Virus record (IMG/VR): IMGVR_UViG_3300048999_000191
Length of the DNA stretch: 64,000 nucleotides
Direction: 5' to 3' (one strand)
Source: a virus
The notes below the pieces were generated by a model. That model did not search any database. It was not told the DNA's origin and saw only the letters and a list, made by a program, of their open reading frames with translations. Within the stretch, counting starts at the first letter, position 1. The number at the start of each line of letters is the position of its first letter. Shown here piece by piece: positions 9,966 to 60,000 of the stretch. Made by a program: the position numbers and the translations under genes.

Positions 9966-10397
9966 TCATGCGCACTCCTCCTCGTCGATCGTGATGCCGA
10001 ACAGCTCCTCCGCGACGTCCAGGTAGCCGTAGATCGCCACCAGCACGTCCTGCGTGCTGCCGAGGTAGGCCAGCGCGTGCAGACGGTGGTTGCCGTCCTC
10101 CAGCATCACCGCGCCCGACGCCGTGACGTCCACCTCCAGCCGTTCCCCGGGTGGCCAGTCGTGGTGGACCAGGTAGGCAATCCGCTCGGCATGAGCTTGC
10201 GCGCTGCACGGACCGCGCATCCAGCTCCGCTCGGGCGGCTCGGGGTTCAGCCGCCCCTCGGCCAGCGCCGAGGTGACCTGATCGCGAGTGACCCCGCCCA
10301 CGCTCCAGACATCCACCTCGAAGGGCCTGAGCAGGTCGATGAGCACCGGCGCCGAGACGGTCGCCTGGCAGTGCTGGGGCCCGGCGTCGACCCTCAT
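9966..10397 (-). CDS. ParB/Srx-like domain protein
   Basis: LEDGNHRLHAL motif; ATG at 10397 overlapping upstream stop. Confidence 0.65.
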   Translation of the reverse strand: MRVDAGPQHCQATVSAPVLIDLLRPFEVDVWSVGGVTRDQVTSALAEGRLNPEPPERSWMRGPCSAQAHAERIAYLVHHDWPPGERLEVDVTASGAVMLEDGNHRLHALAYLGSTQDVLVAIYGYLDVAEELFGITIDEEECA

Positions 10398-10624
10398 CCC
10401 TGCTCTTCCTTCGCGGAGTTGATCATGTTCTTGTACGCCTCGTTCACGTCCTGGCTTTCGACGTTCGCGTACGCCAGCGCGAGCGCCATGAGCAAGGCGT
10501 CGGACTGGTTCACCCGGCGGCGGAGCTTGTGCTGCACGTATAGCTGCCACTGGGTCAACGTGGCTCGCGCGTCGCTCTTGAGCGAGATGCTGGTGTAGCC
10601 GTAGCGGTTGTCGTCGGCCATCAC
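10394..10624 (-). CDS. small DNA-binding protein, ribbon-helix-helix-like
   Basis: YTSISL beta-strand followed by two helices (VNQSDALLMAL). Confidence 0.5.
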   Translation of the reverse strand: MMADDNRYGYTSISLKSDARATLTQWQLYVQHKLRRRVNQSDALLMALALAYANVESQDVNEAYKNMINSAKEEQG

Positions 10625-11430
10625 GCCAGCTTGAAGTGGTCGTCGGTCAGCTCGGTCAGGCCCTTGAGCGCGAGGACCTTGATCTTCTTCCCCTCGCGCT
10701 TAGCGTTCCAGGCCTTGGCCCCGGCGGCCAGGAACGGCTTCACCGGCTTCTCGCCGCCCTTCTGCGCGGAGCGGATGATCAACGCCCGCAGGGCCAGCTC
10801 GGGGTCCCCAGCGTGTAGCCCCTCGCCGTTGCGCACGCCCTCCCAGAACTCCAGGGCCGTGGCCGCGTCGATCCGGAAGGTGAGGAAGTACAGGCAGCCG
10901 AAGGCGGCCGGGAGGGCGCCGATCTCGTTGCGCAGGCCCATGCCGTAGCGCACGGCCTGGCCCATTGCGTCGCGGTTCTGGATGACGTAGTCGACGATCT
11001 CGGCGTCGGTGGGCTTGTAGACCTCACCCCGGACCTCTTCGACCTCCCACAGCAGCACAAGCCGGGTGACGGCCTGGGCCGACTTCGCCGACGGGATGCC
11101 GTGGCCCATGGTCAGCTCGTCGGAGGCAGACCGGCGCCGGTTCTTGTCCATCTTGAACCGGTCTTCGCGAGCGATGTTCTCGACGATGATGAATTCGAGC
11201 GTCACGCCCGCATCGATCAGCGCGCTCAGCCGGTGCTGGCCGTCGATCAGGTGGCCCTCGGTGTCGAACTTGATCGTCTCGCCGATGTTGGGGAACTGGC
11301 CGTTGCGCATGTCGCGGGCGAGCTTGCTAACCCAGGTCGGCGAGATCTTCCGGTTCTCGTTGTTCGTCGCCAGCCACTTCTTCGCCAGCTGGGGCGTCAC
11401 CGGGATCTTGCGGTGCTTGATATCGCTCAA
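10621..11430 (-). CDS. ParB-like (DGQHR) domain protein
   Basis: VTP..A...L..N..NR.IS, IKFD..G.LIDGQHRL.A. Confidence 0.8.
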   Translation of the reverse strand: MSDIKHRKIPVTPQLAKKWLATNNENRKISPTWVSKLARDMRNGQFPNIGETIKFDTEGHLIDGQHRLSALIDAGVTLEFIIVENIAREDRFKMDKNRRRSASDELTMGHGIPSAKSAQAVTRLVLLWEVEEVRGEVYKPTDAEIVDYVIQNRDAMGQAVRYGMGLRNEIGALPAAFGCLYFLTFRIDAATALEFWEGVRNGEGLHAGDPELALRALIIRSAQKGGEKPVKPFLAAGAKAWNAKREGKKIKVLALKGLTELTDDHFKLA

Positions 11431-11446
11431 GACGGGGTCTCCATTC

Positions 11447-11498
11447 CCTCCGGTGCGGGGTACCCGATCAGACTACCCGATCAGGTAGGTTCTGACCA
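11447..11498 (-). promoter_or_regulatory. Cassette element copy 7 with extra tandem half site
   Basis: TGGTCA-17-TAGTCT; palindrome 11473-11488 plus duplicate TACCCGATCA at 11461-11470; CCGCACCGGAGG. Confidence 0.78.
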
Positions 11499-25020: not shown

Positions 25021-25959
25021 TCAGGCGGCCGTGGTGGCCTTGTCGTCCTCGGTCTCCTCCTTGGCCACGGCGCGGCCCAAAACCATGTCAGCGGCCTTCT
25101 GGGCCTTCCCGGCGGCCACGATGACCGCGCGCGGGTCCTCCTTGATCGTCTTGATCCAGGAGGCCAGGTAGGCGGCCGAGTTCTTCTGGGTGCTCTCGAT
25201 GCCGGTCTCGGCGCAGAGGAACGCGGCGCCCATCTCGGCGATCAGCTCCTCGCGGCCGTAGGCGTGGCTGCCGAAGGCGTTGTTGCGGCTCTCCGCGCGG
25301 TTCAGGCGGTGCTCGGCGGCGGTCGAGTGGGTCAGCTCGTGGAACAGCGTCGCGTGGTACTCGTCCAGGCCGTGGAAGCTCTCCTTCAGCGGCATGGTCA
25401 GCTCGTCGGTGGCCCAGGTGAAGTGCGCCGAGTCGCCGCCGTGCTTGATGACCGGCTTGGCCTCCCAGGCGTCCACCACGGCCTGCGCGGCCGCGTGGCG
25501 CTCCTCGGGGCTGGGGACCGGACGGGCCACCGGGAAGGCGTCCTTCGGCAGTTTCTCGATGCCCTCGGTCTGGTCCAGGTTGAACACGTAGAAGTGCTTG
25601 AGCAGCGGGATCATCTTCTTCTTGCCGGTCGCCTCGTCCTCGATCGGCAGCAGCTTCCAGAAGGTGACCAGGGTGCCCTTCTGCGAGCCCTTCTCGCCCT
25701 TCAGGTGACCGCCCAGCTTGGCCATCTGGTTGAAGGTCAACCAGTACGCGCTGCGGTAACCCTTCTCGGCCTGCTCCAGGCCCAGCAGGAAGGCGTTGAC
25801 GCCCCGGTAGGCCTTGCCCGAGGAGAGCGACTTCGGCGCGCCGGTGACGCTGTCCCACGGCTTGTTCCACGGCGCGGTGCCGTTCTCCAGCGCGGTCAGG
25901 ATCTTGGTGGTGACGACGTCGTAGACATCGACCTTGGGCTTGCGGGCGGTGGTGGCCAT
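25021..25959 (-). CDS. ardC: ArdC-family antirestriction ssDNA-binding protein (DUF1738 plus zincin domain)
   Basis: PWNKPW, YRGVN, WLTFNQ, LFHELTHST, YGREELIAE, SAAYLASW, AAGKAQKAAD. Confidence 0.92.
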   Translation of the reverse strand: MATTARKPKVDVYDVVTTKILTALENGTAPWNKPWDSVTGAPKSLSSGKAYRGVNAFLLGLEQAEKGYRSAYWLTFNQMAKLGGHLKGEKGSQKGTLVTFWKLLPIEDEATGKKKMIPLLKHFYVFNLDQTEGIEKLPKDAFPVARPVPSPEERHAAAQAVVDAWEAKPVIKHGGDSAHFTWATDELTMPLKESFHGLDEYHATLFHELTHSTAAEHRLNRAESRNNAFGSHAYGREELIAEMGAAFLCAETGIESTQKNSAAYLASWIKTIKEDPRAVIVAAGKAQKAADMVLGRAVAKEETEDDKATTAA

Positions 25960-27738: not shown

Positions 27739-28317
27739 TCACGCACCACGGCTGGCCGCCCAGGAGTCCAAGGCGTCCCACAAGGCGTGTTCGCGGCGCC
27801 AGACGACATCGATGACCACGAGATCTGCCGCGTCAGCGATGGCTCGGGACGCGGCGCCGGAGACGTACCGGATGGAATCGTCGTAACGCGGCTTCCCTCG
27901 GCCGCCCACCTCGCCCCACTCGGAGTAGCGCACCAGCGGCTCGTCGTGAACGAGGCTGTCCAGCACGAGCATGCCCGCGCTTTCCATGACGGCCCGGAAG
28001 GTGTGCAGCTTGGCCCGATCCAGGAAGCCCTCGACGAAGGCCCGGGTTTCCACCAGCTGCTCGTCTTCGCTGAAGGTGCCGCCGGGCTGGCTCTGATAGG
28101 TGAAGAACCCGGCGGCGTTCGCCCGCGCGAGCACGGGCAACAGGGGTTCCGTCTCCGCGTCCGGCACGTCATAACCGCCCGGGTGCGCACCCAGTTCGCC
28201 TCGGGCCCACTGGGCTCCGCACTGGCCCAGCTCGTCGACACTCTTGGCCTCGCGCCACTGGCGGCGCTGTTGGCGGTAGTAGGCCCGGTCACTCCAGGCG
28301 TCCAGCAAGTTGATCAC
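27739..28317 (-). CDS. conserved actinomycete mobile-element protein (DUF6919-like)
   Basis: PDAETEPLLPVLARANAAGFFTYQSQPG motif; family call from memory. Confidence 0.6.
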   Translation of the reverse strand: MINLLDAWSDRAYYRQQRRQWREAKSVDELGQCGAQWARGELGAHPGGYDVPDAETEPLLPVLARANAAGFFTYQSQPGGTFSEDEQLVETRAFVEGFLDRAKLHTFRAVMESAGMLVLDSLVHDEPLVRYSEWGEVGGRGKPRYDDSIRYVSGAASRAIADAADLVVIDVVWRREHALWDALDSWAASRGA

Positions 28318-28742
28318 ATGAGTCCCCTCTCGGCGTAGATGCGCAGCTGGTCCTCCAGCGCGTGGGAGACGCTGCGTCGGCTGGCCAGGATGGCCGCCTT
28401 CGCCTCGTCGTACGGGGCGCGCGGCACGATGAAGCGCAGCCGGGCGCGGGGCGTCTTGGCGCGGAACGGCGGGCGCCGCGCGGGGTCGTAGGCGGGATCC
28501 GGCCGGGCCTCGGCGGCGGCCGCGAACAGCAGAGCGCGAGCGACGGCGGCGTAGTCCACTCCGTCGCTCTCCGCGCGCTTGCTGGCGAGCCGGTTCACCT
28601 CGGCGTCGAGCAGGATGTCCGCCTCGAAGGTGGGCTGCTCCGGGTCGATGCCGTGCTGAGCCAGGATCTTCGAGAACGTGGCCTGAATCCGGGCCACCTG
28701 CGCATAGCCGCGTGCGTACCGGCCGATGCGTTCGATCGTCAC
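28314..28742 (-). CDS. putative tandem ribbon-helix-helix regulator
   Basis: Two beta-alpha-alpha units: FEADILLD...YAAVARALL and LRFIVP...SVSHALEDQLRIY. Confidence 0.55.
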   Translation of the reverse strand: MTIERIGRYARGYAQVARIQATFSKILAQHGIDPEQPTFEADILLDAEVNRLASKRAESDGVDYAAVARALLFAAAAEARPDPAYDPARRPPFRAKTPRARLRFIVPRAPYDEAKAAILASRRSVSHALEDQLRIYAERGLM

Positions 28743-29185
28743 GCCTTGGCGTCCTCGGTCAGCTCGTCCTCGACGGCCAGGCCGACCTTCTCCACCGCGA
28801 CTACCTCCCAGGTCTCGGCGTACACGCCGTACAGCTTGACGACCGCGTCGTGCGCCAGGGCCACGGCTTCCACGTGATCGCGCGGCGGCCAGGTGACGAA
28901 CTTGTGGACGTAACCATCCACAAAGGTCGCTCGCCAGATCTCCTTGTCCTTCTGGGTGTGCTGGGCGGTCCAGCGCATGCCCACCGGAGTCATCGGCAGG
29001 TGATCACCGTTGCCCTGGGCCTTGGAGGTCCACTCCAGGCTCGCGCGCCGCTCCTTCGAGGGCTTCCCGCCGGTGTGCTTGGCCACCCACTCCGCCGAGC
29101 CGTCGAAGGCCTTCCCGAACGACTTGCCCGCTCGCGCGAAAAGGCCCGGCCCCTTCTTCTTCGGCCGCTTATTCGCCTTGGCCAT
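28739..29185 (-). CDS. hypothetical basic protein
   Basis: GGGAGG RBS; divergent from the transfer operon. Confidence 0.7.
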   Translation of the reverse strand: MAKANKRPKKKGPGLFARAGKSFGKAFDGSAEWVAKHTGGKPSKERRASLEWTSKAQGNGDHLPMTPVGMRWTAQHTQKDKEIWRATFVDGYVHKFVTWPPRDHVEAVALAHDAVVKLYGVYAETWEVVAVEKVGLAVEDELTEDAKA

Positions 29186-29231
29186 GATCCCTCCCGGGTT
29201 GGTTCAGGATTGTGTACTCGCAGGGTATGTT

Positions 29232-29250
29232 ACCCCGTAGGCTACGGGGT
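29232..29250. promoter_or_regulatory. palindromic operator in divergent promoter region
   Basis: Perfect inverted repeat ACCCCGTAG-G-CTACGGGGT between divergent starts at 29185 and 29266. Confidence 0.65.
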
Positions 29251-29265
29251 GAGTATCCTACGGTC

Positions 29266-29535
29266 ATGACTTACGACCCTGAGCGTGACGAGACCCCGAG
29301 CTACGAGGGCGAGGTGGTCGAGGAGAAGGCCCGCATGCGCCCGCGTACGAAGGTGGCACTCGGCGGGCTCGTGGGCCTCGGCGTCTCGATCGTCGCCGAG
29401 CAGTACCTGATCGCCATCGGGCTGATCTGCGCCTACGTCGCGTGGATGTTCGTCCGCACGTGGCTGGCGAAGCGGCGCCGCGACCGCGCATGGCTCGACG
29501 GCGGCGGAACGATCGAGCGAGGAGGGATCCTGTGA
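29266..29535 (+). CDS. small membrane protein (Spd-like)
   Basis: Two hydrophobic segments; first gene of the plus-strand operon. Confidence 0.65.
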   Translation: MTYDPERDETPSYEGEVVEEKARMRPRTKVALGGLVGLGVSIVAEQYLIAIGLICAYVAWMFVRTWLAKRRRDRAWLDGGGTIERGGIL

Positions 29536-30332
29536 AGCTGCCCGATGGCGGCAAGCTCGTGTCCTGGACGGGCTTCATCTTCGGCACGGCGGTGTCGGTC
29601 GCCGCGAATGTGCTGGCCGCCAGGATCCCGCCCGATCACGCCGCGTCGGACTGGACCCCTCGCACGGACACCCAGTTGGGCTCGGCGGTCTGGCCGCTGG
29701 CGCTGCTGCTGTCGATCGAGGTGCTCGCACGGGTCGCCTGGCCCAAGGGCGTCTGGTGGAACGTCGCACGCTTCGGTGGCCTGAGCATCGTGGCCAGCGG
29801 TGCGTTCGTCATCTCCTACCAGCACATCAACCACGTGCTGGCCTCGTGGGGCTACGAATGGCTGAGCCAGGGCGTCGGCCCGCTGGTGATCGACGGCTTG
29901 ATGGTCATCTGCGGCGTGGCGATGCTGGCCAAGCCGGGCGCGCTGCGCAAGCTGCTCGCGGGCAAGGACGCGCCGGAGCGGAGGGACGTCATTCCCGAGG
30001 TCCCGAAGCCGATGCTGCGGCCGCTGAACGAGCCGAACATCGGCGGCCCGAGTAAGTCCTCGTCCGTCGAGGACTCGACGGCCCCGGCTGAGCTGGAGCA
30101 CGGCGTCCCGGCGCAGCGCAACGGACACCGGGTGTCGGCAGCGCTGAAGACCGGCCCGAAGCCGCGCAAGACCTCGGGCCAGAGCGACGAGGAGATCGCC
30201 ACCCTGCTGCGCGGGGAGATCGAGCGGGACGAGAACCCGGACCTCACCAAGCGCGGCGTGATGACGCGATTCGGCGTCGGCGCACCGCGCTGGACCAAGA
30301 TCACCGAGCTACTGAAGAAGGAGGAGTCGTGA
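29532..30332 (+). CDS. DUF2637 / SpdA-like membrane protein
   Basis: SVAANV, WPLALLLSIEVL, ISYQH, PLVIDGLM; 4 TM segments plus basic helical C-terminus. Confidence 0.8.
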   Translation: MKLPDGGKLVSWTGFIFGTAVSVAANVLAARIPPDHAASDWTPRTDTQLGSAVWPLALLLSIEVLARVAWPKGVWWNVARFGGLSIVASGAFVISYQHINHVLASWGYEWLSQGVGPLVIDGLMVICGVAMLAKPGALRKLLAGKDAPERRDVIPEVPKPMLRPLNEPNIGGPSKSSSVEDSTAPAELEHGVPAQRNGHRVSAALKTGPKPRKTSGQSDEEIATLLRGEIERDENPDLTKRGVMTRFGVGAPRWTKITELLKKEES

Positions 30333-32389
30333 GCGGTGAGTCGAAGGGGGTCGTGAAGGAGATCCTCGGCACGGCGGGCGGCGTGCTCGTCGCCGAGGGG
30401 ATCGGGCGGGGGTGGAAGCGCGGCCGCAAGCTGATGTTCCGGTGGCGGCGCGCGCTCACCCCGCTGTGGTTCGGGTTCCTGATCTTCCTGACCTGCGTCA
30501 TCTGGCGCTGGCAGATCCCGCAGTGGTGGCCGATCGTGCTCACCATCCCGGTCGGCGGCGGCCTGCTGGCGGTCTTCGGGCCGAAGCTGTCGGATCGCTG
30601 GTCCCGGGTGGCGATGGCCTTCGTGCCCAGTGGGCTCGACAAGGGCAAGGACGGCGTGCTGGACCGGCTCGTGGAGCGGATCTACTTCGGCACGCTCACC
30701 ACCTACATCGGCGCCTACATGGTCCTACGCATCGTGGACGGCTCCAGTTCGTTCTCCGGCTACATGTGGCAGATCGGAGTGGCTGCCTTCGGCGGCGCCT
30801 GGTGGTACCACCGCCGGGTGCGGGTGGCCGGACGGGCCGACCGCTTCGCGAAGAAGTGGCCGAAGCTCTCCGACAAGACGACCTGCCCGCCCCGGCTCGC
30901 GCCGCTGGTCGGCTCGAAGGTGGTCGACGCGCGGGCGTACGGCAAGACCTCGGTGCTGAAGATCCGGCTCGGCGAAGGCCACACTGTGGACTCCGTCTCG
31001 CACCTGCGTGACGCGCTGGCGAGCTTCTTCGGGATGCGCCCGTCCTCGGTGTTCATCGCGCCGGACCAGGACCAGGCTCGCAACGTGGTCATGACCTTCC
31101 TGCCGAAGGACCCCTGGGACGGCAAGATCGCGCACCCGATCTTCACCGATAGCGAGATCAAGCCGGGCGAGATCAGCCTGAAGTCGATGGGCAAGCGCTT
31201 CGCCATGGGCCTGCACGCCCACGGCGAACGGATCATGTACCAGCTTCAGCACACGCTGGTGGTCGGCGCGTCCGACTCGGGCAAGTCCGGCTGGCTGCAC
31301 TCGCTGATGGCGTGGCTGGTCAGCTTCTTCGACGTCGTGATCGTCGGCATCGACATGGCCGCCGGGGCGACGCTGGGCGTCTGGCGCAAGACCCTCGCGC
31401 TGCCGCTGGCCGAGGACGTGGACTCGGCGGTCGTCATCCTGGAGCGCGTCTTCGGCGTGATCCGGGACCGGGAGTCCCGGCTGGGCCTGGCCTCGGAGGA
31501 CGACGACGACGCCGAGGACAGCGTCGAGCCCGACCGCAAGACCCCGTGGCTGATCCTGGTGATCGACGAGTTCCCGGACCTGCTGGCCGAGGCCAAGGCG
31601 ACCACGAAGTACAACGGAGACGGCAAGGCCGACGGCAACATGCTGAACTACGTGATCGCCCTGCTGTCGCGGATCGCGAAGAAGGCGCGCAAGTGTGGCG
31701 TGCGGATCGTCATCGCGAGCCAGAACGGGACCAAGGCGGACCTGGGCTCGAAGGAGATGCAGGCCCAGCTGCGCGCGATCGTGGGCCTGGGCCTGGACCC
31801 GCTCCAGTCCAAGAACCTCTGGCAGAACGACATGCACCGGGGCTGGAACTCGACGGCACTACGGAACGGCCAGTTCCTCCTGAAGGACGACGAGCACGGG
31901 ACTCCGGACCCGGGCAAGGGGTACTGGGTCGAGAACAAGGACCGCCGGGATCTCGTCAAGAAGGTGGCGCCGAAGGGATACCGCGAGGTCTTCCTGGAGC
32001 CCACCGCGTGGGCGATCCTCATGGGCGAGACCAAGCCGGAGACCATCGAGGGCGAGGTCATCGCGGAGGAGACCTTCGGTCCCGAGTACGCGGTCCTGGA
32101 GTACCTCCGGGTCGAGGCCCAGGACGGCGCGAAGGTGGAGACCATCTCCGACGTCCTGACCAAGGCCAAGGAGGAGACCGGCGGGTCCGGTCCCGGGACC
32201 AGCCGGGCGACGATCTACCGGCACCTGGAGAAGCTGGAGAAGGGCGAGCTGGTCGTCCGCAACGGCGGCGGCGAGGGCTTCTGGAAGGCGGCCCCCGTCA
32301 CGGCCACCACGCCAGTGCCCGAGCCCCGCACGGAGACGGACGGGCCGGTGGTCATCGCCAGCATCCAGGGCGAGGCAGTGTCGAAGTAG
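30329..32389 (+). CDS. traB: TraB-type FtsK/SpoIIIE DNA translocase
   Basis: N-terminal TM segments, Walker A GASDSGKS, Walker B LVIDE, ARK.G..IVIASQ, C-terminal wHTH SRATIYRHLEKL. Confidence 0.85.
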   Translation: MSGESKGVVKEILGTAGGVLVAEGIGRGWKRGRKLMFRWRRALTPLWFGFLIFLTCVIWRWQIPQWWPIVLTIPVGGGLLAVFGPKLSDRWSRVAMAFVPSGLDKGKDGVLDRLVERIYFGTLTTYIGAYMVLRIVDGSSSFSGYMWQIGVAAFGGAWWYHRRVRVAGRADRFAKKWPKLSDKTTCPPRLAPLVGSKVVDARAYGKTSVLKIRLGEGHTVDSVSHLRDALASFFGMRPSSVFIAPDQDQARNVVMTFLPKDPWDGKIAHPIFTDSEIKPGEISLKSMGKRFAMGLHAHGERIMYQLQHTLVVGASDSGKSGWLHSLMAWLVSFFDVVIVGIDMAAGATLGVWRKTLALPLAEDVDSAVVILERVFGVIRDRESRLGLASEDDDDAEDSVEPDRKTPWLILVIDEFPDLLAEAKATTKYNGDGKADGNMLNYVIALLSRIAKKARKCGVRIVIASQNGTKADLGSKEMQAQLRAIVGLGLDPLQSKNLWQNDMHRGWNSTALRNGQFLLKDDEHGTPDPGKGYWVENKDRRDLVKKVAPKGYREVFLEPTAWAILMGETKPETIEGEVIAEETFGPEYAVLEYLRVEAQDGAKVETISDVLTKAKEETGGSGPGTSRATIYRHLEKLEKGELVVRNGGGEGFWKAAPVTATTPVPEPRTETDGPVVIASIQGEAVSK

Positions 32390-32403
32390 GCTTCGAGTAG
32401 GGC

Positions 32404-32720
32404 CGTTTGCGCAGGTCAGCGACCCTACGAGCGGTTTAGAGTACAGCGAAGCCCCCGGGTGTCCGACCACCCGGGGGCCTTCTGCTGTCCCACTCCCAAG
32501 AGGAACCAGGTCAGGCTAGCACGCGTCTGACCTGCGCAAACGCGCCCCGCGCGCCTGCGAACACGTACGTACGTACTGCATGTGCACACGCTATGTGCGC
32601 GCTCGGGGGCGCTGCGCGTCTCATGTCGCACGTCTCACGTCATGCGTAACGTGCGCAGGCGCGGGGGCTGCGAGAACGCGAGATCGATCATGTTTGCCCA
32701 GGTCACTGACCTGCGGAAAC
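32404..32720. repeat. four alternating copies of a TGACCTGCG-AAAC-type motif with nested inverted repeats
   Basis: 32404-32419 and 32527-32542 form a perfect 16-bp IR; further copies at 32692-32705 and 32707-32720. Confidence 0.75.
32451..32478 (+). terminator. terminator after traB
   Basis: GCCCCCGGGTG-TCCGAC-CACCCGGGGGC. Confidence 0.7.
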
Positions 32721-32778
32721 TCTCAGAGGCCGTCCTGGGGGTCTCGACCCGTCTCATCCTGGGTCGCGATCATGAACG

Positions 32779-32805
32779 AGCCCCCGGCAGGTGCTCCCGG
32801 GGGCT
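32779..32805 (-). terminator. terminator for the converging minus-strand operon
   Basis: AGCCCCCGG...CCGGGGGCT next to stop at 32825. Confidence 0.65.
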
Positions 32806-33159
32806 TTCATTCGACACAGCGTGACTAGTTCTGGTCGTCCCAGCGGAACAGCCAGCGGCCGTTGCCGTGGTCCTGGACGACGCCCGGGATCCCGCATCGC
32901 CGGTGGGTCTCGTTGAGGATCCGGGTCACCTCGGGACCGGCCACCTGCTCGACGAACTGATCGAGCCCATGGGCCCAGACCCAGGCGAGGATCCCAGCCG
33001 GGTCCCGGTGCGGCTCGAAGGTCACGTGGAACAGCACATCCCGCAGAGACCCGGAGTCGCTCTGGTCTCGGATGGTGTCCCGCGCGGCTCCGAGTTCCAT
33101 GATGAGGTGTCCCACGCTCGGCGCGAGACCCAGGCTGGGCCCGGTCTCGGTCCCAGCAC

Positions 33160-33519
33160 TCACGGCATGGTCCCGACCCAGCGGAGCTGGAACCGCTCGG
33201 GACTCGCCTGGGTCACGGTACCGTCGAGATCCAGGTCCACCGAGGCCGTCGTGAGGACCTCCTGGGCCAGGTCCGTGTGGGCCCAGCCGTACTCGTCGGC
33301 CGGGACCGCCGCCTCGATCGCGGTCCCGTCGACCCCGGTGAGGCACAGTTCCGAGATCACCCAGTGCCGGTCCCGGTCCCGACGGTCCTGCTCGTTCAGC
33401 ACGCCGTCCATCGTGACGCGCGGCTGTGGCATCACCTGGACGAGCCGATCCTTCACCGCCTGCGCTGCCGCGAGCACCTCCGCCATCGCGGGCGGCGCCT
33501 CGATCTTCGTGTTCGCCAT
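33160..33519 (-). CDS. hypothetical protein
   Basis: AAGGGAGAG RBS; 119 aa. Confidence 0.6.
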   Translation of the reverse strand: MANTKIEAPPAMAEVLAAAQAVKDRLVQVMPQPRVTMDGVLNEQDRRDRDRHWVISELCLTGVDGTAIEAAVPADEYGWAHTDLAQEVLTTASVDLDLDGTVTQASPERFQLRWVGTMP

Positions 33520-33556
33520 CTCTCTCCCTTCTCAGCTCCCGGCTGTCCGGGAACTG

Positions 33557-34261
33557 TCAATTGGTCAGAAGCTGGACGATCTCCCACCACGGCCTTCCGG
33601 CCGTCATCAGCGTGGCGGTGCCCAGCAGGCCGACCCCCACGGCCAGGCTCATCGTCACGGCGCCCTCGCCGAGATTCACCCACGACCAGCGGGACAGGGT
33701 CTTGATCCGGCCCTTCTCCCGGTGGCCGCCGACGCGGAAGCGGGCGATCTCGGGGCAGGTCCAGACCGAGAACCAGCGCTTGCCGTTGCGCTCGACGAAG
33801 GGGGCCCAGAGCGGGATCCCGCTCAGCGTGATGCTGTCGCCCCACAGGTGCGCGAAGTGGCCCAGGGTCATGGCCAGGGAGGCCCACAGGGCCCAGTCGG
33901 ATGCGGGACTGGCCGAGATCCCGAAGTAGGTCCCGAGACCCACCAGGAGGCCCCAGACGGCCGTGTGGGTCAGGGTCCGGTGACCCGGGAACCGGCCCAT
34001 CCGGTCCTTGCTGGTCCGGGTGGCCTCCCAGACGATGATCGAGACCTTGTTGATCAGCCAGGCCAGGCCCCAGGTGATGGGTCCCAGCAGCTTCGCGGCC
34101 TTCGCCTTCGGCATGTCCAGGTCCGGCAGCAGGGCGCCGATCCCGACGATCCCGACGAAGACCAGGGTCACCACCGCGTTGGCGGGACCCGGGTGCGGGA
34201 CCAGCGGGGCCACGGCGAGCGCGACTGCGTACCCAGAGAGTTGGTGTCCGGTGTGTTCCAC
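33557..34261 (-). CDS. YdjM-like membrane-bound metal-dependent hydrolase
   Basis: GH, LPDLD, HRTLTH, HLWGD motifs with TM helices. Confidence 0.85.
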   Translation of the reverse strand: MEHTGHQLSGYAVALAVAPLVPHPGPANAVVTLVFVGIVGIGALLPDLDMPKAKAAKLLGPITWGLAWLINKVSIIVWEATRTSKDRMGRFPGHRTLTHTAVWGLLVGLGTYFGISASPASDWALWASLAMTLGHFAHLWGDSITLSGIPLWAPFVERNGKRWFSVWTCPEIARFRVGGHREKGRIKTLSRWSWVNLGEGAVTMSLAVGVGLLGTATLMTAGRPWWEIVQLLTN

Positions 34262-44900: not shown

Positions 44901-45437
44901 ATGCCACGACGGATCTTCACCGCAGAAGAGCGCTATCTTGCGAAGGTAGACAAGTCAGCTGGACCAGATAAGTGCTGGCCATGGACCGGTCACCGGCTCA
45001 AGAAGGGGTACGGGCTGTTCTGGGATGGAACGCGCAATGCCAGCGGGAACAACCACCTTGTAGTCGCAAGTAGGTGGGGTTACGAACATTTCGTCGCCCC
45101 GATCCCGGCAGGGCTCTTCGTACTGCATCGATGCGACAGCCCTCCTTGCCAGAACCCAAAGTGCTGGTTCCTTGGCACTAACCAGGACAACGTCAACGAT
45201 CGAGTGATCAAAGGGCGCGGTGCCAAGGGCGAGCGCAGTGCCTTCAAGCTTCACCCCGAGCTATATCGAGGCGAGAACCACTACAAGGCGACTCTGACCG
45301 AAGACGATGTCCGCGAGATCCGTAGGCGCTACGCGGCTGGCGGGATCACCCAGCAGGCGCTAGGTGATGAATTCGGGCTCCACAACGTCACCATTTCCAA
45401 GATCATCACCAAGCAGCGCTGGGCTCACGTCGACTAA
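44901..45437 (+). CDS. HNH homing endonuclease with C-terminal HTH
   Basis: CWPWTG, VLHRCDSPPCQNP...GTNQDNVND, LTEDDVREIR; lower GC, opposite strand. Confidence 0.9.
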   Translation: MPRRIFTAEERYLAKVDKSAGPDKCWPWTGHRLKKGYGLFWDGTRNASGNNHLVVASRWGYEHFVAPIPAGLFVLHRCDSPPCQNPKCWFLGTNQDNVNDRVIKGRGAKGERSAFKLHPELYRGENHYKATLTEDDVREIRRRYAAGGITQQALGDEFGLHNVTISKIITKQRWAHVD

Positions 45438-47407
45438 CGTCGCCGCCGGTGAGGGTTCCGTGCAGGGTTGAGCCCTCCTGCGCGGACCATCGTCCTCTTG
45501 CTCGGGGACAGTCGATTGAGCACATCCTGATCGGGTGACTCCATGTTGCGGTACGGGTTGAAGCCGCCCTGCTGGCCGGTCACGATGTTCATCTCGCGCA
45601 GCATGCCCGCCTGCCAGTTCCGGACCTGCTCGCCGAGGATGGTCCAGACCACTTCCATCATGCACTTGGCCACGTCGTCATGGACCACGGGACCGGTGTC
45701 CTGGTGCACGACGCGGTTGGTGGTCGCGGTGGTCTTCAGCTGGAGGAACTTCAGCTCCAGTTCGGCGGTCTCGTACCAGGGCGCCTCGACCCAGCCCTGG
45801 TTGATCGCGACCTTGAAGCACTCGGCCACCTGCCAGTTGTGCTTGGCGTCGGACTTCTGCTCGAAGATCGTCATGCGCTTCGGCGCGCGATTCTGCCGGA
45901 CCTTGCGGTTGAGCCGCTGGATCGGCATGGCCGAGTTGTGCTGGTCGAAGGTGAACTCGTCGATCTTGAAGCCCCAGATGATCTCCCACAGCTCGACGTC
46001 CACAACCTGGATGTAGTCGATCGTGTGGTCGGGGAACTCGGCCGGATCCCAATGATGGAGCAGGTCGAAGCGGCAGCGGAGAAAGCCGTCCTCGTGCTCT
46101 TCGGCGTGGCCGACGGCGAGACCGAAGTTGTCGTTGACCTTCGAGGGGTCCGCGTGTCCCTTGTAGAACGTCGTGAGGTTCTTGGCCGTGCGGGTCATTA
46201 CGAGGTCGTTCTGGAAGATCGCCTCGACCTTCTTCGGGTCCAGGTAGGCATCCACCACCGACTGCCAATGCGAGCGGCGCTCGACGGAGAAGGTGTCGGG
46301 GTTGGCCCGCTCCAGCTTCTCCATCCGCTCGTCGTACTCCTGGATGGCGCCCTTGAGCCGCTGGAACTTCGGGTGCGGCCGCTCCAGGTACTCGTTCAGA
46401 TCGCCGGTGAAGTCCTCCGGGAAGACGGGCAGCATGTGCGCGTCTTTCCAGTCGTAGTAGATCTCCCAGCTGGCCAGCTGGAGCATCATCATCTCGGGGT
46501 ACTCGGGGTTGCCGTCCTCGTCGAAAGCCAGCGCCATCTCCCAGTTCGCGTAGAACTGGCCGATCATCTGCCAGGGACTCGACGGGTCGATGATGAAGCC
46601 GTCCATCTTGAATTGATCAAGAGATGGAGTCGCTGAGCCATACACCTCTTCGGCGGAACGACCGGCACCCGAGGGCACCACGTGCGCCATCTCGTCGAAG
46701 CCGAGCCCGAAGGAGGCCGGGCCACGCGCGGACATCAGCGTGGCCTCCTTCGGCTGGATCGTGAAGGTGGCCATGTCCCGCGCGGTGGTGACCCCGCGCT
46801 GATTCTGCCGCCGCAACCGGACGAAGTCGTGCGGTGCGTAGATGGTCAGGTTCTCCCCGAGCGACCGGGAGATGTACTTGGCGAAGCACGGGGCGCCCTG
46901 GATGACGTTGACGACGTCCTTCCAGAGGTTCTCCCGGGCCTGCTGCTTCTTCCCGGCGTAGATGAACATCGCCAGCTGCTTGTCGCGGTCGATCCCGTAG
47001 TACTCCTGGGGATCACCCTTGGCCATGAAGCGCCAGAGCACGTAGGCCATGGCCAGCGCCGAGACGTAACCCTTCCCGGCGCGGCGGCCGAGGACCAGCA
47101 GGACCTCGCGGAAGTAGAAGTAGCCCTTGAGCCGGAGCGCGGCCATGCGCTGGCGGATCTTCGGCACGATGCCGTTGTTCCCGTGCCGCTCGAAGGAGGC
47201 CTCCCACTCGTCGATGACCATGTGGTCGTACTCGGTGAGGAGGTCGTTGCGCAAGAAGATGACCTTGAGCAGGGTTGCCTGACGCGGGTAGAGCTGCCCC
47301 CGGCCACACCAGCGCGGGTTGATCGCAAAGGTGATGGGGTCAGGAACCGGCAGCCCCGTGAACGCTGCGAAGTCCACGGGGCTGAAGGCCGGAGGCGAGA
47401 GGGTCAT
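45434..47407 (-). CDS. terL: terminase large subunit
   Basis: Walker A LGRRAGKG, Walker B FDEMAH, SSP coupling motif, nuclease HADPS..ND and HDDVA; ATG at 47407. Confidence 0.85.
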   Translation of the reverse strand: MTLSPPAFSPVDFAAFTGLPVPDPITFAINPRWCGRGQLYPRQATLLKVIFLRNDLLTEYDHMVIDEWEASFERHGNNGIVPKIRQRMAALRLKGYFYFREVLLVLGRRAGKGYVSALAMAYVLWRFMAKGDPQEYYGIDRDKQLAMFIYAGKKQQARENLWKDVVNVIQGAPCFAKYISRSLGENLTIYAPHDFVRLRRQNQRGVTTARDMATFTIQPKEATLMSARGPASFGLGFDEMAHVVPSGAGRSAEEVYGSATPSLDQFKMDGFIIDPSSPWQMIGQFYANWEMALAFDEDGNPEYPEMMMLQLASWEIYYDWKDAHMLPVFPEDFTGDLNEYLERPHPKFQRLKGAIQEYDERMEKLERANPDTFSVERRSHWQSVVDAYLDPKKVEAIFQNDLVMTRTAKNLTTFYKGHADPSKVNDNFGLAVGHAEEHEDGFLRCRFDLLHHWDPAEFPDHTIDYIQVVDVELWEIIWGFKIDEFTFDQHNSAMPIQRLNRKVRQNRAPKRMTIFEQKSDAKHNWQVAECFKVAINQGWVEAPWYETAELELKFLQLKTTATTNRVVHQDTGPVVHDDVAKCMMEVVWTILGEQVRNWQAGMLREMNIVTGQQGGFNPYRNMESPDQDVLNRLSPSKRTMVRAGGLNPARNPHRRRR

Positions 47408-47991
47408 CCCTGGACGGTCTCGGAACCCCGGAAGCGCCGCGCGTCGTCCGGGAACCGCTCGCTGTAGGCACTGGTCGACATCCGCTCGCCCGAGGGCCAC
47501 AGCTCGACCATGTCGCCGTCGTCGGTGGCCCAGCTGACGAACGCGGGCTCGTTGCCGGTCAGCTTCGCCTTCTGGAGCGCGTAGACCCGGGCCTTGTCCG
47601 GCGAGTCCTCCTCGGCGGCGACCTCGGGCAGATCGCGGTTCGTGAAGCACACGAACGCGCCGTACACAGCCATGCTCTGCTCCTTTGTGGATTTGCGGAG
47701 GATCAGGTTGTACTCGACCCGGTCGCCCTCCGCCTTGCGTCCCCACCGGCTCGTAAGGACGTCGAACTGGTCACCGTTGACCTCCAGCGCCGAACCGACC
47801 TCGGGAAGGTCGAAGGGGAACACCCCGAAGCCGCTGATGCCGCGATAGTCGTCCTGGCTCGCGGCATGACGCCACGCGAGGAAGGCAGCACGCACGTCCA
47901 GGACGCTGGACTCCCGGGGCACAGGAAGACCGGCCACCACGCACCCGGCGAGCAGCGCGGCCAGCTCCTCGGTGGTCTTCCGCTCGCTCAC
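47404..47991 (-). CDS. hypothetical protein
   Basis: GTG at 47991 coupled to neighbours. Confidence 0.65.
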   Translation of the reverse strand: MSERKTTEELAALLAGCVVAGLPVPRESSVLDVRAAFLAWRHAASQDDYRGISGFGVFPFDLPEVGSALEVNGDQFDVLTSRWGRKAEGDRVEYNLILRKSTKEQSMAVYGAFVCFTNRDLPEVAAEEDSPDKARVYALQKAKLTGNEPAFVSWATDDGDMVELWPSGERMSTSAYSERFPDDARRFRGSETVQG

Positions 47992-55993: not shown

Positions 55994-57061
55994 TCAGCCC
56001 TCCTTGATCGGGTCGGTGATGACCTCGTGTGTTCGGGTGGCCAGAACCTTCTCCCGGATGGCCTCGCGCGCCTTGACGTTCTCGCGCAGGTAGGCGACCA
56101 CCGAGTCCTCGCCGTTGTGCTTCGAGCCATCCGGCAGGTCGTACCAGGCGCTCCGGCGGCCGAAGACGCCTGGGATGTTGCGGGCGGTGTTGAAGACGTC
56201 CCGGGCTACATCCAGGCCCATCGGGCCGTACTTCTCGGTGGTCTGGTTCCAGAAGGTCGCCTTCGCGGTCCGGCGCGGCGGGGCCACCTTGTTCTTCTCG
56301 ATGAACATGGCGATCTCCTGGCCGACCTGCTCCTCCGCATCCTTGCCGCCGATCATGTAGGGCTTGGTGCCGGTGCGCTTGAACTGCACGCGGTGCGTGG
56401 TCACGTGGGAGAGCGCGAAGCCGCCGGTGCGGGTCAGGTCCCCGCCGTAGGCCAAGTTGGCGCGCACCTGGTTGATGATCGAGAGAATGGCGCCGGTTCG
56501 GCCCATGTCCGCCGAAGCGATCTTGACCATGCGGGTTACGACCTTGGCGTTGGCCGCCATCGTGACCTCGTCGGCGTCCTTGTCCTTCTCGGTCTGGGTG
56601 ATCATCGCACCCACCGAGTCGAGCGTGATGAAGCCGAACATCGGCTCGCCGCCATCGGTAGCGTTGATCAGCTCTTTGGTGAGATCGGCGACTTCCTCGG
56701 CATTGCCGGGCTGGATCAGGATGAACCGGCTCGGGTCCAGGTCCAGGCCGTGCCCCCGCGACCAGTCCAGGTCGAAGGTGCCCTCGACATCGATCCACGC
56801 GGCCATCCGGTCCGGCACCTGCTTCTGAAACTCGGCGGCGGAGATCGTCAGCATGGTGGACTTGCCGGTCTGTTCCCGGCCCCACAGCTCGACGACACGG
56901 CCCTTCACCCAGCCACCGCAGCCGAGGGCGTAGTCCAGGGAGAGCGAGCCCGTGGGGACGACCTCCGGCGGGCCCTCGCTCAGGTCACGGATCGAGGCAC
57001 CCTCGTGGCGCTTTTCCAGGTCTTCGGTGAATTTCTTCAGCGCTGCCTTGCTCGGGCTCAT
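55994..57061 (-). CDS. recA: RecA recombinase
   Basis: PTGSLSLDYALGCGG, GREQTGKST, IDVE, LDSVGAM, INQVR, GGFAL, KNKVAPP. Confidence 0.95.
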   Translation of the reverse strand: MSPSKAALKKFTEDLEKRHEGASIRDLSEGPPEVVPTGSLSLDYALGCGGWVKGRVVELWGREQTGKSTMLTISAAEFQKQVPDRMAAWIDVEGTFDLDWSRGHGLDLDPSRFILIQPGNAEEVADLTKELINATDGGEPMFGFITLDSVGAMITQTEKDKDADEVTMAANAKVVTRMVKIASADMGRTGAILSIINQVRANLAYGGDLTRTGGFALSHVTTHRVQFKRTGTKPYMIGGKDAEEQVGQEIAMFIEKNKVAPPRRTAKATFWNQTTEKYGPMGLDVARDVFNTARNIPGVFGRRSAWYDLPDGSKHNGEDSVVAYLRENVKAREAIREKVLATRTHEVITDPIKEG

Positions 57062-60000
57062 GCGGTCACTCCTTGGATCGGGATGAAGGTGTCCAGGCGG
57101 CAGCCCCGGTCTCCCTTGGTGACCAGTGCGTACGCCAGGCTCCCCTTCACGAATTGGTCGCCCTGCTGCTCCCAGAGGGAGGGGAAGGCGGCGGTGGTGA
57201 ACGACCCACGAGGGGTGGAGAGGGTGACGATCGCCATGGCGTCACCCTTCTTCGTCTGGATCTTGCGGACGCCCTGGATCACGGCGGCGACCATGTAGTT
57301 GCCGAGGCCGCCGCTCTCGATGTCGTCGGCGGTCGCGAACTGCTCCATGTCCTCGGCCGGGATGACGTCGAACGGAGTGGAGGAGAGATAGGTCCCGAGC
57401 AGCTCCTGCTCGATCGCGCGGATCTCGGCGGCCGAGTAGGGCGCCACGGTGACGTCGCCGAGCCCGGCCGCCTCGGTCCACTGGCGGCAGCCCTTCGAGC
57501 AGGTCTTCGGGGGCGCCTTCCGGCGCTCCAGCTTGCCCGTGCGCTCGCTGGTCGTCTCCGGCTCACTCAGCCAGTCGAATCCGCACGGGAGCGTCCAGGA
57601 GGCCGTCTCAGGTGCCATGGGGACACCGCGCTTCGGCGAGGGGAGCCAGACCAGCTTCCGATCGTCCTCGGCGCGGTGTGCGCAGCGCTGGGCGGCCGGG
57701 AGCGAGTCGAACGCCAGCCGCTCCTCCAGCACCCGCCGGTTGGGCTCCAGCGAGTCGAACACCCCGAGCTTGACCATGGTGGCGATGTGGCCCTTGTTCA
57801 CCTTCGAGCCCCGGCGCTCCAGGAAGTCCTCCCAGGAGGCATAGGGCTGCCCGGCGATGATCGATTCGACGGCGATCGGCCCGAGCCCCTTGATCGCGTC
57901 CATCCCGTAGCGGATGTCCAGCCCGGTGTCGCCGATGGAGAAGCCACGCCCGGAGAGGTTGATGTCCGGCGAGAGGACCTTGTACCCCATCCGCCGCGTC
58001 TCTTCCACATAGGACACACGCACGTCGTCGTCCTTGGCGGTGGAGAGCGCGCCACACATGAAGTAGAGCGGGTAGTGGAATTTGAACCAGGCCGTCCAAA
58101 CACCCAGAATGGCGTAGGCGAGCGCGTGGGCGAAGCCGAAGCTGTACCGCGCGAACTCCTCCATCTGCGCCCACAGCTCGCGCGTGACGGCCTCGTCGGT
58201 GCCATTGGCCATGGCCCGCTCGATGAAGCGCGCGCCCTCCTTCTTCGCCTCCTCGACCTTTTTCTTGCCGAGGATCTTCCGGACCTTGTCGGCCTCGACG
58301 TCGTCGTACTGCGCGAGCACCATGCACAGCTTCATGAGCTGCTCCTGGTAGATCATGGAGTTGCCCGTGAGGATGTTGTCCTCCAGCACGAAGGCGTGCG
58401 TCTCCGGCACGACCGCGCAGAACACCTCTTCGACCCGGTCGGTCTCCTCGACCGACACGACGGCCCATTGGACTCGGTCCGCCTTCTGCCGTATTGCCCG
58501 CGCGGCGCTGAACCGGCGGCGGTGCTCCTCGATCAGGAAGAAGTCCTCGGCGAGCGTGGAGGCGACCAGGCCCAGGTCGTAAACGACGGCTTCGCGAGGC
58601 TCCGTTGATCCCGGCAGCGGCGATCGCGTTACTTTCTGGGTGATGCCATAGGTGCCGATGCCCACTAGTTGCGCTACCGTCCGGAAGCGCTCCAGATCCT
58701 CCCTGCGGGCGCTGGTGATCAAGGGCACCCCCTTGGCGGTCACCTGTCCGTCGGCTGCGAAGTACCCGGCCAGCCAGCCGTAGAGGTAGCTGGTTCCCTC
58801 ATCCAGGCGGGGTGCTTCGCGCCAGGACCTCGGCAGGTCGATGACCTCGATGTAAGGCACCGCGTTCGGACCCCCGTGCGGGGCGTAAGACCTCGTGCGC
58901 GAGTTCGGGAAGTACTTCAGCAGCTGTGCGTCCTTCTCGCCGTACAAACGCACACTGGCCTGGTTCTCGGTGCGCGTCCCATCACCGAAGACGATCCCGG
59001 CGGTGATCCCGAAGGGAGACGGGGTACTTCGGCTGGCCACGCGGCGCGGCAGCTGCGCAGCAAGCACCATGCCGGACCGCAGCTCGGTGGTCAGCAACTC
59101 CTTGACCTTGCTCTTGCTGTCGCTCCAACGTCCGAACCAGCGGTGGTTCGACGTCGCATAGATGACCTTCTCCTGCTTGTTGCGCCGCAGGCTCACCTTC
59201 ATGAGCGGCTGCACACCGAAGCTGCGCACTTCTGCATTGGTCCAGACCCCGCCCGTGGTCATGAGGTCGTGCTTCGACCCGACGAGATCACCGATCTCGC
59301 GCACGCCCTGCTTGGTTGTCACCCGAGTCTCGGCGGCAAAGCAGCCCCAGGTCTTGCCGAGGACCTCGCGCATCCGCTCGTCGGGGTAGTAGACCTCCTC
59401 CTCGCCCTTGCGCCGGGCCAGGTAGCGGTCGGTCAGCCCCGAGCGCGCCGGGCCGGGCCGGACCAGGGTCACCATGTCGGCCAGCTCGTGCAGGCCGCCG
59501 GGCTTCATCCGCCGGGACATCGCGGTGCCGATCGCCGAGCCGATCTGGAACAGGCCGAGACAATGGCCCTTCCCGATCTGGTCGTACAGCAGCGGGTCTT
59601 CCAGCTCCTCGGTCCAGGCGTAGGGGTTGATGCGCTTGCCGGTGTGCTCGAAGATCAGGTCCATCGCGGTCTGGATCATGTCCAGGTTGGCGATGTTGAG
59701 CAGGTCGAACTTCACGTACCCGAGTAGCTCCAGCACCTTCAGGTCGAATTGGGCGATCATCGTGCCGTCCTCGCCCATCCGCAGCGGCAGGTTCTCCGTC
59801 AGCGGATGATCCGGGTCGATGATCACGCCCGCCGGGTGCTTGCCGTAGGCCTTCAGCCGCCCGTGGAAGCGCTTGGCGTAGAGGAAGACGTCGGGGTATC
59901 GGTCGGCGTAGGGCTGGAGCAGGTCCCCGGCGCGGTCCCACAGTTCGTCCCAGGACAGCCCCAGACCGGCCGTGTCACCCTCGGCCGCCTCGATGATCTT

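Follow-up and report, generated by a model that had tools for sequence, protein, structure and literature searches.

A resident TraB-like DNA pump module and its motif array in a soil phage genome, with a possible role in virion-independent spread

The viral DNA stretch IMGVR_UViG_3300048999_000191, 64,000 nt in length and referred to here in its entirety as the window, derives from soil metagenomes and carries at 29266-32389 an operon of three genes. These encode a small membrane protein, a DUF2637-family membrane protein and an FtsK-superfamily ATPase, termed here the pump. Judged by sequence profiles and phylogeny, the pump is nearest, among the named families and references compared, to the TraB/Tra translocases of actinomycetes and not to chromosomal FtsK. 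The operon is accompanied by a dense array of short palindromic words that is maintained beyond the needs of the encoded proteins, and by gene order the whole module is a resident of its phage lineage. The reading favoured here, to which a probability of about one half is given, is that the resident TraB-like module and its array serve the virion-independent movement of phage double-stranded DNA (dsDNA) between hyphal compartments. How a phage infection makes its way through a mycelium that is divided into compartments is little understood.

The pump and its nearest kin

Four hydrophobic helices at the N-terminus of the pump form a membrane domain (approximately residues 40-165), which is followed by an FtsK α/β motor (approximately residues 190-555) with the Walker A motif GASDSGKS at 313-320 and the Walker B motif LVIDEF at 409-414. 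The polypeptide closes with a winged helix at 585-655 (helices 585-638 and strands 642-654 in the structural model), which matches HTH_20 weakly and contains the helix SRATIYRHL. The model, built with AlphaFold2 on 54 homologs and reaching a predicted local distance difference test score (pLDDT) of 82, has long N-terminal helices, the α/β motor and a C-terminal unit of three helices and two strands. A sequence search against solved structures gave no match for the pump, and the fold search alone was informative: with Foldseek, the best solved structures were FtsK motor domains (E 2e-19, template modelling score 0.64-0.71 on the target), followed by the coupling protein TcpA and then EccC. Across the 54 homologs 49 columns are invariant, G318, K319, S320 and E414 among them. 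The TraB-type architecture, with membrane N-terminus, FtsK motor and winged helix in one polypeptide, is thereby complete, and an earlier sequence-only reading of this DNA had rightly described a membrane-anchored FtsK-family ATPase with a C-terminal winged helix-turn-helix.

The profile FtsK_SpoIIIE of Pfam (PF01580) matches residues 307-465 with 33.4 bits against a cut-off of 24, which places the pump in that superfamily. Its sole NCBIfam match is plasmid_TraB (NF041214; 45.4 bits, E 4e-12), and this is also the best profile in 54 of 54 members of the pump family. An exhaustive search of 1.84 billion representative proteins returned 488 relatives at E <= 0.001; when the nearest 73 representatives were scanned, 65 matched plasmid_TraB (best 1e-58) and 28 matched FtsK. 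The hidden Markov model made from the pump family alone missed chromosomal FtsK, and a broader profile was needed for a tree of the motor domains. In that tree the phage pump family is a well-supported clade, the sister of which (90 by the Shimodaira-Hasegawa-like approximate likelihood ratio test, SH-aLRT) unites the Tra protein of a pZL12-like 90-kb plasmid with a protein encoded beside portal and capsid genes. A separate clade holds gp10 of the Streptomyces phage Gilgamesh with a protein of a 130-kb plasmid, and the chromosomal FtsK and four EccC proteins of one Amycolatopsis genome lie on the opposite side of the root. Because of the profile tallies and the motor tree, TraB-type translocases are regarded as the nearest kin of the pump. 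The phylogenetic check that the sequence-only reading had proposed thus comes out in its favour, the ATPase being TraB-like and grouping with Tra of pZL12-like plasmid-phages rather than with the FtsK and EccC of Amycolatopsis.

This kinship bears on another role for the pump, namely in segregation or sporulation in the style of SffA-SmeA or SpoIIIE, where the translocase, brought to division or sporulation septa by the small membrane protein, would clear or move phage genomes into daughters or spores as a carrier state, or would help to resolve replicated concatemers. The arrangement, with a small membrane gene ahead of one for an FtsK-family protein, is reminiscent of Streptomyces coelicolor smeA-sffA, in which a small membrane protein gene reportedly lies directly upstream of the FtsK-family gene. 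The fold of the pump is indeed the FtsK fold, and a link with the development of the host has been considered for the FtsK-like genes of Streptomyces phages (PMC13587820). The pump family nevertheless groups with TraB-like proteins and not with chromosomal actinomycete FtsK, the complete relatives encode no recombinase partner, and the motifs at the module are local instead of genome-wide and without strand polarity of the kind that directs FtsK and SpoIIIE. A role in segregation is accordingly considered improbable.

Two side observations concern the family at large. One 821-aa homolog (P0029) contains an intein inside the P-loop of Walker A, between LLCGTNG and SGKSGW. In the 150-kb class of phages (the window at 32330-32389, P0004, P0012, P0018 and P0029) a variable linker leads to a conserved pump C-terminus, (I/V/L)(A)SIQGE, and the pumps of the 60-kb class are without this tail.

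The motif array and the membrane partners

An unbiased scan for locally clustered words ranked GGTCCCG/CGGGACC first among all 7-mers of the window (p 5e-11). There are 31 copies in the window, 14 of which lie in one 2.5-kb stretch and 15 in an interval that covers the 3' third of the pump gene and the genes downstream of it (Table 1). In relatives the most clustered word likewise lies at the module. Most 60-kb phages have CGGWCCG, which recurs as often as once every 17 bp, and the array word is GGTACC in three lineages and GGCACC in one. Arrays of GGWCC or GGTACC reach 8-38 per kb, against 3-5 per kb elsewhere. When codons were resampled synonymously with the protein sequence kept (1000 resamples), the excess reached a z of 11.8 and none of the 1000 resamples was as high. 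The DUF2637 gene of L020 has 31 copies where 9.1 are expected (z 8.7), the pump gene of L003 has 37 against 11.0 (z 9.2), and GGTACC occurs nine times in the DUF2637 gene of L011 against 0.6 (z 11.8). The corresponding values in the window are 18 against 10.4 for the pump gene (z 3.1) and nine against 3.5 for the YdjM gene (z 4.0), and the gene for the 119-aa protein at 33160-33519 has nine GGWCC against 4.9 expected. Additionally, the module array is the strongest short-motif cluster of the entire genome in three complete relatives (G005, G006 and G002), at 38 per kb against a median of 3 in G005 (p 3e-23) and, in G002, at the same place relative to the module as in the window. The arrays exceed what codon usage requires and are selected at the level of DNA. 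Therefore, owing to their position at the module, their excess over coding needs and their rank as the top cluster genome-wide, they are a candidate loading site for the pump. Clusters of CTGGCG/CTGGTG in L006, L010, L012 and L037 were not counted as arrays, as they probably reflect the Leu-Ala/Leu-Val coding bias of membrane segments.

The type of motif partly follows the residue at the start of the recognition helix, with Ser in phages that favour GGWCC and Ala in those that favour GGTACC or GGCACC. This correspondence has two exceptions and is suggestive only.

Of the two partners of the pump, the small protein has a single hydrophobic stretch of approximately 40 residues (VALGGLVGLGVSIVAEQYLIAIGLICAYVAWMFV), in keeping with its earlier description as a small transmembrane protein, and a gene of 52-85 aa occupies its position in all relatives examined. 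In the second protein (29490-30332) a variable linker joins the four-helix membrane domain to a helical tail at the C-terminus, which is conserved (KRGVMTRFGVGAPRW). Pfam DUF2637 (PF10935) falls below threshold on it (17 bits against 22.8). Its homologs in Kutzneria, Saccharomonospora, Amycolatopsis and Streptomyces, with 55-66% identity over the membrane domain, are named DUF2637 by their sources and many carry PF10935, and membership is assigned through them; 34 columns of the membrane domain are invariant across 25 homologs. In a Kutzneria element a DUF2637 homolog (64% identity over the membrane domain) adjoins a TraA-like gene and a plasmid_TraB protein, a neighbourhood that therefore links DUF2637 to genuine transfer modules. 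A tblastn search with the window protein found no match in phages or plasmids. The sequence-only reading had termed this protein DUF2637/SpdA-like, of which the first half holds and the second is not supported. As a rule, sequence does not suffice to assign Spd proteins (PMC4447253). The DUF2637 protein resembles SpdB2 in having four membrane helices and a place beside the pump, but phiC31, which is said to have an SpdB2 homologue (PMC4447253), gave no DUF2637 match.

In the mechanism proposed here, the 686-aa protein would act as a membrane-anchored, FtsK-fold and presumably hexameric dsDNA translocase of the TraB kind. Its winged helix would recognise and bind the palindromic array (CGGWCCG type; GGTCCCG/CGGGACC here) in the DNA of the module itself, which would make the array a clt-like site. 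The DUF2637 protein and the small protein would constitute the membrane part of the apparatus, and the three proteins would form a complex, as TraB and Spd proteins do in spreading plasmid dsDNA of Streptomyces within the mycelium (PMC4447253). Presumably acting on the phage's own DNA and in the direction from cell to cell, this complex would pump unpackaged phage dsDNA through septal cross-walls or hyphal contacts into neighbouring compartments. One infection could thereby take more cytoplasm than the compartment that was entered, and the phage may have a second, virion-independent route for which a plasmid state is unnecessary. A related suggestion exists, in that SpdB2 homologues on actinophages might, according to the authors, help phage DNA to spread (PMC4447253). 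The generalisation that apparently virulent tailed phages of mycelial actinobacteria possess a second infection route, in which an array-loaded pump drives naked dsDNA in a conjugative-plasmid-like spread, is put forward tentatively and with distinctly less confidence than the reading of the module itself.

A number of observations weigh against virion-independent spread by this module. The equivalog cut-off of plasmid_TraB is 800 bits and the pump is therefore not a member of the curated TraB family; for comparison, the Kutzneria protein scores 629 bits on the same profile. The deepest split of the motor tree, between the phage/TraB side and FtsK, is weakly supported, and the pump family is known from sequence alone, its close homologs being all metagenomic with no cultured member. 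The arrays are palindromic, occur in both orientations and have no strand polarity, unlike the compact clt of pSVH1; in 60-kb phages they cover the module's 5' half, and in the window its 3' end and downstream genes. They might, alternatively, be bound by a protein that represses or silences a toxic operon. The covariation of helix and motif is imperfect, being broken by L021 and L026. The pSVH1 recognition word GACCCGGA is not enriched and was rejected as a site, since its 2 plus-strand and 11 minus-strand copies are scattered over the window with no cluster. Furthermore, DUF2637 homologs occur in prophages without a pump, as in Saccharomonospora, and the DUF2637 gene of Gilgamesh lies approximately 68 kb from its FtsK-like gene. 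Finally, a mycelial host is presumed and not established. The Streptomyces-type host suggested by the earlier label of the conjugation module is unproven, with DNA of metagenomic origin and Pseudonocardiales as the source of the closest cellular homologs of the DUF2637 protein.

Residency, replicon and regional layout

No fewer than 25 independent phage contigs have the three genes at the same place, and two phage classes are among them: 150-kb contigs and a large set of 58-63 kb phage genomes. The shared order, in which the three genes also keep their orientation, is the small gene, the DUF2637 gene, the pump gene, often an HNH gene, and then YdjM, with the terminase 8-13 kb further on. The terminases of the two classes are unrelated. 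Because this synteny is conserved in two classes with unrelated terminases, the module is taken, from its gene order, to be resident in the phage lineage and not a freshly inserted actinomycete integrative and conjugative element (AICE). Neither integrase nor resolvase was found in the window or the complete relatives, and the flanks are conserved phage genes in all relatives. This agrees with the sequence-only reading, in which the module looked resident and which had asked for the same linkage in relatives; the linkage of module and terminase does recur in many independent contigs. More distant relatives of the pump lie in phage-like contexts and in two Amycolatopsis genomes. A search of 50,697 deposited phage genomes yielded no close relative and a single match, Gilgamesh gp10 (25% identity over 37% of the protein).

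Such conservation is also relevant to the possibility that the pump and its partners act in exclusion or conflict, blocking or expelling the DNA of competitors or hampering conjugative elements of the host, with the array as a mark of self or a regulator. In PHROGs, the FtsK/SpoIIIE-like proteins of phages are classed as ‘moron, auxiliary metabolic gene and host takeover’, the module lies in an early or accessory region near an ArdC-like anti-restriction gene, its separately regulated layout on the opposite strand is typical of accessory cassettes, and a weak PADLOC match to mad8 was obtained (E 1e-6). However, the PADLOC matches are weak and partial and amount to no membership of a defence family. 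Strict conservation of three genes and their position in two unrelated backbones is unusual for conflict genes with their fast turnover, and a sequence-reading winged helix together with a self-encoded array points to the phage's own DNA. A function in exclusion is thus thought unlikely.

That the replicon is a tailed phage is clear from the large terminase subunit, TerL, which the sequence-only reading had correctly placed at 45.4 kb and which is 33-35% identical to its counterparts in Rhodococcus phage E3 and in mycobacteriophages of the cluster C type. The window also encodes DnaE with an apparent intein, a RecA/UvsX-like protein, SSB, WhiB, Lsr2, a sigma-factor fragment and an ArdC-like protein. 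Five complete relatives are available (CheckV 100%, four with terminal repeats), among them one 155-kb genome with a 91% identical pump; Baseplate_J is found in the complete relatives G002 (155 kb) and G003 (150 kb), in line with a contractile tail.

The sequence-only reading had gone further and proposed a large phage-plasmid with two transmission routes. As a conjugative phage-plasmid, the genome would persist as a plasmid in lysogen-like carriers and would move either as virions or by TraB-driven hyphal conjugation. The precedent for this is pZL12, a 90-kb Streptomyces plasmid-phage that has a main tra gene with two neighbouring genes, all reportedly needed for transfer (PMC3583192, PMC4487206, PMC7157519). 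Circular 90-kb plasmids like pZL12 have a TraB-like gene beside a terminase gene, and their Tra belongs to the sister group of the pump. A promoter of its own and a conserved candidate operator serve the operon, which lies on the strand opposite to nearly all other genes. A relative of the phage by terminase (47% identity) lives as a plasmid, pRLB1-9.1 (L002, NZ_CP041653.1), a 154-kb circular element of the isolate Streptomyces sp. RLB1-9. In its region 36312-78468, pRLB1-9.1 encodes DnaE, a DnaB-like helicase, WhiB, two tyrosine recombinases and a DUF2637 protein, the last without detectable similarity to that of the window, and it looks like a relative of the present phage lineage.

Against a phage-plasmid, pRLB1-9.1 has no TraB-like gene and is treated as a plasmid that is often lost in matings (bioRxiv 10.1101/2024.05.27.596038), and the terminase type is that of large lytic myoviruses. 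The virion genes (TerL, and Baseplate_J in G002 and G003) are unaccompanied by maintenance genes: no Phage_integrase, Resolvase, AAA_31, CbiA (ParA) or ParB_N was detected in the five complete relatives, and a Pfam inventory of the window, in which plasmid Rep families were not searched one by one, revealed no integrase, Rep or partition gene. pSLE1 and pZL12, by contrast, are reported to carry ParA and ParB, pZL12-type elements living as plasmids (PMC4487206). A ParB-like interpretation of 9966-11498 was discarded, as it had no Pfam match at E <= 1e-4. The sequence-only reading was therefore right that no integrase or rep gene is visible, but a phage-plasmid state is not supported by the gene content, and a conjugative phage-plasmid is unlikely. 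Virion-independent spread, as favoured here, would need no such state.

The features of the region are collected in Table 1. At a G+C content of 67%, open frames alone are weak evidence, and open reading frames (ORFs) were chosen by their third-position G+C (GC3). Of the 96 ORFs so supported in the window, 88 are on the minus strand, and the operon is the sole multi-gene unit on the plus strand, as had been claimed. The interval first drawn around it, 27739-32389, includes the operon, but by its start also contains three minus-strand genes that lie outside it. Of these, the DUF6919 gene accompanies the module as a conserved neighbour in phages of the 150-kb class and has the same place in the P0012 contig. 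The 142-aa protein has no match in Pfam, NCBIfam or PADLOC, and its C-terminal third appears by eye to be strand-helix-helix. The protein at 28739-29185 had been taken for a ribbon-helix-helix regulator, an assignment that received no support even at E up to 5; no Pfam family matches it at E <= 0.01, and the actinobacterial domain SPDY/DUF317 is sub-threshold (15.7 bits against 25). In the divergent promoter region, the palindrome block GGGTATGTTACCCCGTAGnCTACGGGG is near-invariant across four phages of the 150-kb class, the flanks of which have diverged.

Downstream, a perfect 16-nt inverted repeat (32404-32419 and 32527-32542) brackets the operon terminator, with a third copy of the repeat at 32701-32720, 160 nt further on. 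Relatives have an HNH endonuclease gene (HNH_3) where the window has the spacer at 32490-32780, and in both phage classes the YdjM gene is conserved as a neighbour downstream of the module. Logan contigs of the probable source run have an even depth of 72-76x to either side of the module with no supported joint, and one contig extends from the operon far into the downstream genes. Such even depth and the same synteny in many independent contigs dispose of a chimeric join, which had been named as a possible refutation. Rfam and tRNA scans of the region and the window found no RNA features, and a megablast comparison of 27-34 kb with plasmids and phages found no relative at the DNA level.

Table 1. 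Features at and around the pump operon, with positions in the window.
Feature	Position	Strand	Basis or remark
DUF6919 protein, 192 aa, third gene of the divergent unit	27739-28317	-	Pfam PF21897, E 7e-23
142-aa protein, no family	28314-28742	-	GC3 0.92
Basic 148-aa protein, first divergently transcribed gene	28739-29185	-	ORF
19-bp palindrome ACCCCGTAG-G-CTACGGGGT, candidate operator of the module operon	29232-29250	.	read in the divergent promoter region
Small membrane protein	29266-29535	+	89 aa from ATG; ORF opens at GTG 29212
DUF2637-family protein, four membrane helices	29490-30332	+	profile and homologs
TraB-like dsDNA translocase (pump), 686 aa	30329-32389	+	profiles, model, fold search, tree
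GGTCCCG/CGGGACC and GGWCC core array, candidate clt-like cis site	31463-34202	both orientations	clustered-word scan
Hairpin terminator ending the operon, GCCCCCGGG ... CCCGGGGGC, then a T-rich run	32451-32485	+	read by eye
Non-coding spacer between two terminators, nested inverted repeats	32490-32780	.	about 290 nt
Small conserved gene, about 91 aa	32825-33100	-	ORF; 98-99 aa gene at the same place in relatives
119-aa protein, no family given, holds part of the motif array	33160-33519	-	GC3 0.93
YdjM-family membrane-bound metal-dependent hydrolase	33557-34261	-	Pfam PF04307, E 2e-21
Large terminase subunit TerL	45434-47746	-	phrog_2

Three further observations concern the window outside the module. 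An intein that includes a LAGLIDADG domain seems to be present in the DnaE-like polymerase gene at 57058-61464 (1468 aa), and Intein_splicing and LAGLIDADG_3 are also matched in another gene in the second half of the window (Pfam, with the DnaE gene left out). The ArdC-like anti-restriction protein (ArdcN and a zincin-like peptidase domain) is encoded at 25021-25959, 3 kb upstream of the module region.

Significance and comparison with known systems

If the reading of virion-independent spread is true, these phages borrow the simplest known conjugation machine, a single dsDNA-moving ATPase, for particle-free movement between cells, and the line between infection and conjugation is blurred. This would bear on the ecology of soil phages, on gene flow in antibiotic producers and on the design of phage and plasmid tools for actinomycetes. 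The arrays provide a concrete and testable handle, a candidate loading site whose word varies by lineage. The codon-controlled and genome-wide statistics for the module arrays are new, as is the finding that the complete relatives have no detected lysogeny or partition genes; the novelty is tempered by the published conjugative Streptomyces plasmid-phage pZL12 and by the wide annotation of FtsK-like genes in actinophages.

Chromosomal FtsK and SpoIIIE share with the pump the motor fold, the membrane anchor and the winged helix, which in their case is a gamma domain that reads short words, the FtsK-orienting polar sequences (KOPS) or SpoIIIE recognition sequences (SRS). Chromosomal FtsK is missed by the pump-family profile and lies on the other side of the tree, and the phage motifs are local and non-polar where KOPS and SRS are genome-wide and skewed. 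Phage-encoded ATPases of the FtsK family are known from Streptomyces phages with an annotated ‘FtsK-like DNA translocase’ (Gilgamesh gp10; Mandalore, Naboo, Geonosis, Jaresh and AndoPrime), and such genes have been noted repeatedly in new Streptomyces phages, as annotation only (bioRxiv 10.1101/2024.02.16.580700, PMC11536984, PMC13587820). Gilgamesh gp10 also has plasmid_TraB as its best profile (54 bits) and a membrane protein gene after its own, but falls in a different clade from the present pump. In L015 (NZ_CP122459.1) and four other Streptomyces plasmids of 130-132 kb, a protein with an FtsK/SpoIIIE domain groups with gp10 of the 129-kb Gilgamesh; these plasmids may be Gilgamesh-like phage genomes.

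Close known counterparts are the TraB/Tra proteins of Streptomyces plasmids and AICEs (pSVH1 TraB, pIJ101 Tra, pJV1 Tra), which have the same succession of membrane N-terminus, FtsK motor and winged helix. As in TraB/Spd systems, the operon includes small and polytopic membrane proteins, and as in TraB/clt systems, short repeated words are clustered in or beside the gene. Unlike those elements, the present module is encoded by tailed phages in which no rep, int or par genes were found, and it is not adjoined by a GntR-type TraR/Kor repressor. Its partner is a DUF2637 protein, the equivalence of which to any named Spd is not established, and, in contrast to the compact 8-bp direct repeats of clt, its repeats are palindromes of 5-7 bp spread in both orientations over 1.5-3 kb of coding DNA.

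The pZL12-type plasmid-phages are a further close system. In L016 (NZ_CP108469.1) and other circular Streptomyces plasmids of 89-99 kb, all typed as non-mobilizable by MOB-suite, a TraB-like gene lies a few kb from the terminase, and these are probably pZL12-like plasmid-phages. The 90-kb pZL12-like plasmid examined has no DUF2637 gene, pZL12-type elements differ from the present lineage in the ParA and ParB noted above, and identity between pump and pZL12-like Tra is approximately 25% and confined to the motor. Nevertheless, such elements, like the phages described here, place a TraB-like ATPase on a replicon with terminase and virion genes, and their Tra is the nearest labelled relative of the pump in the motor tree.

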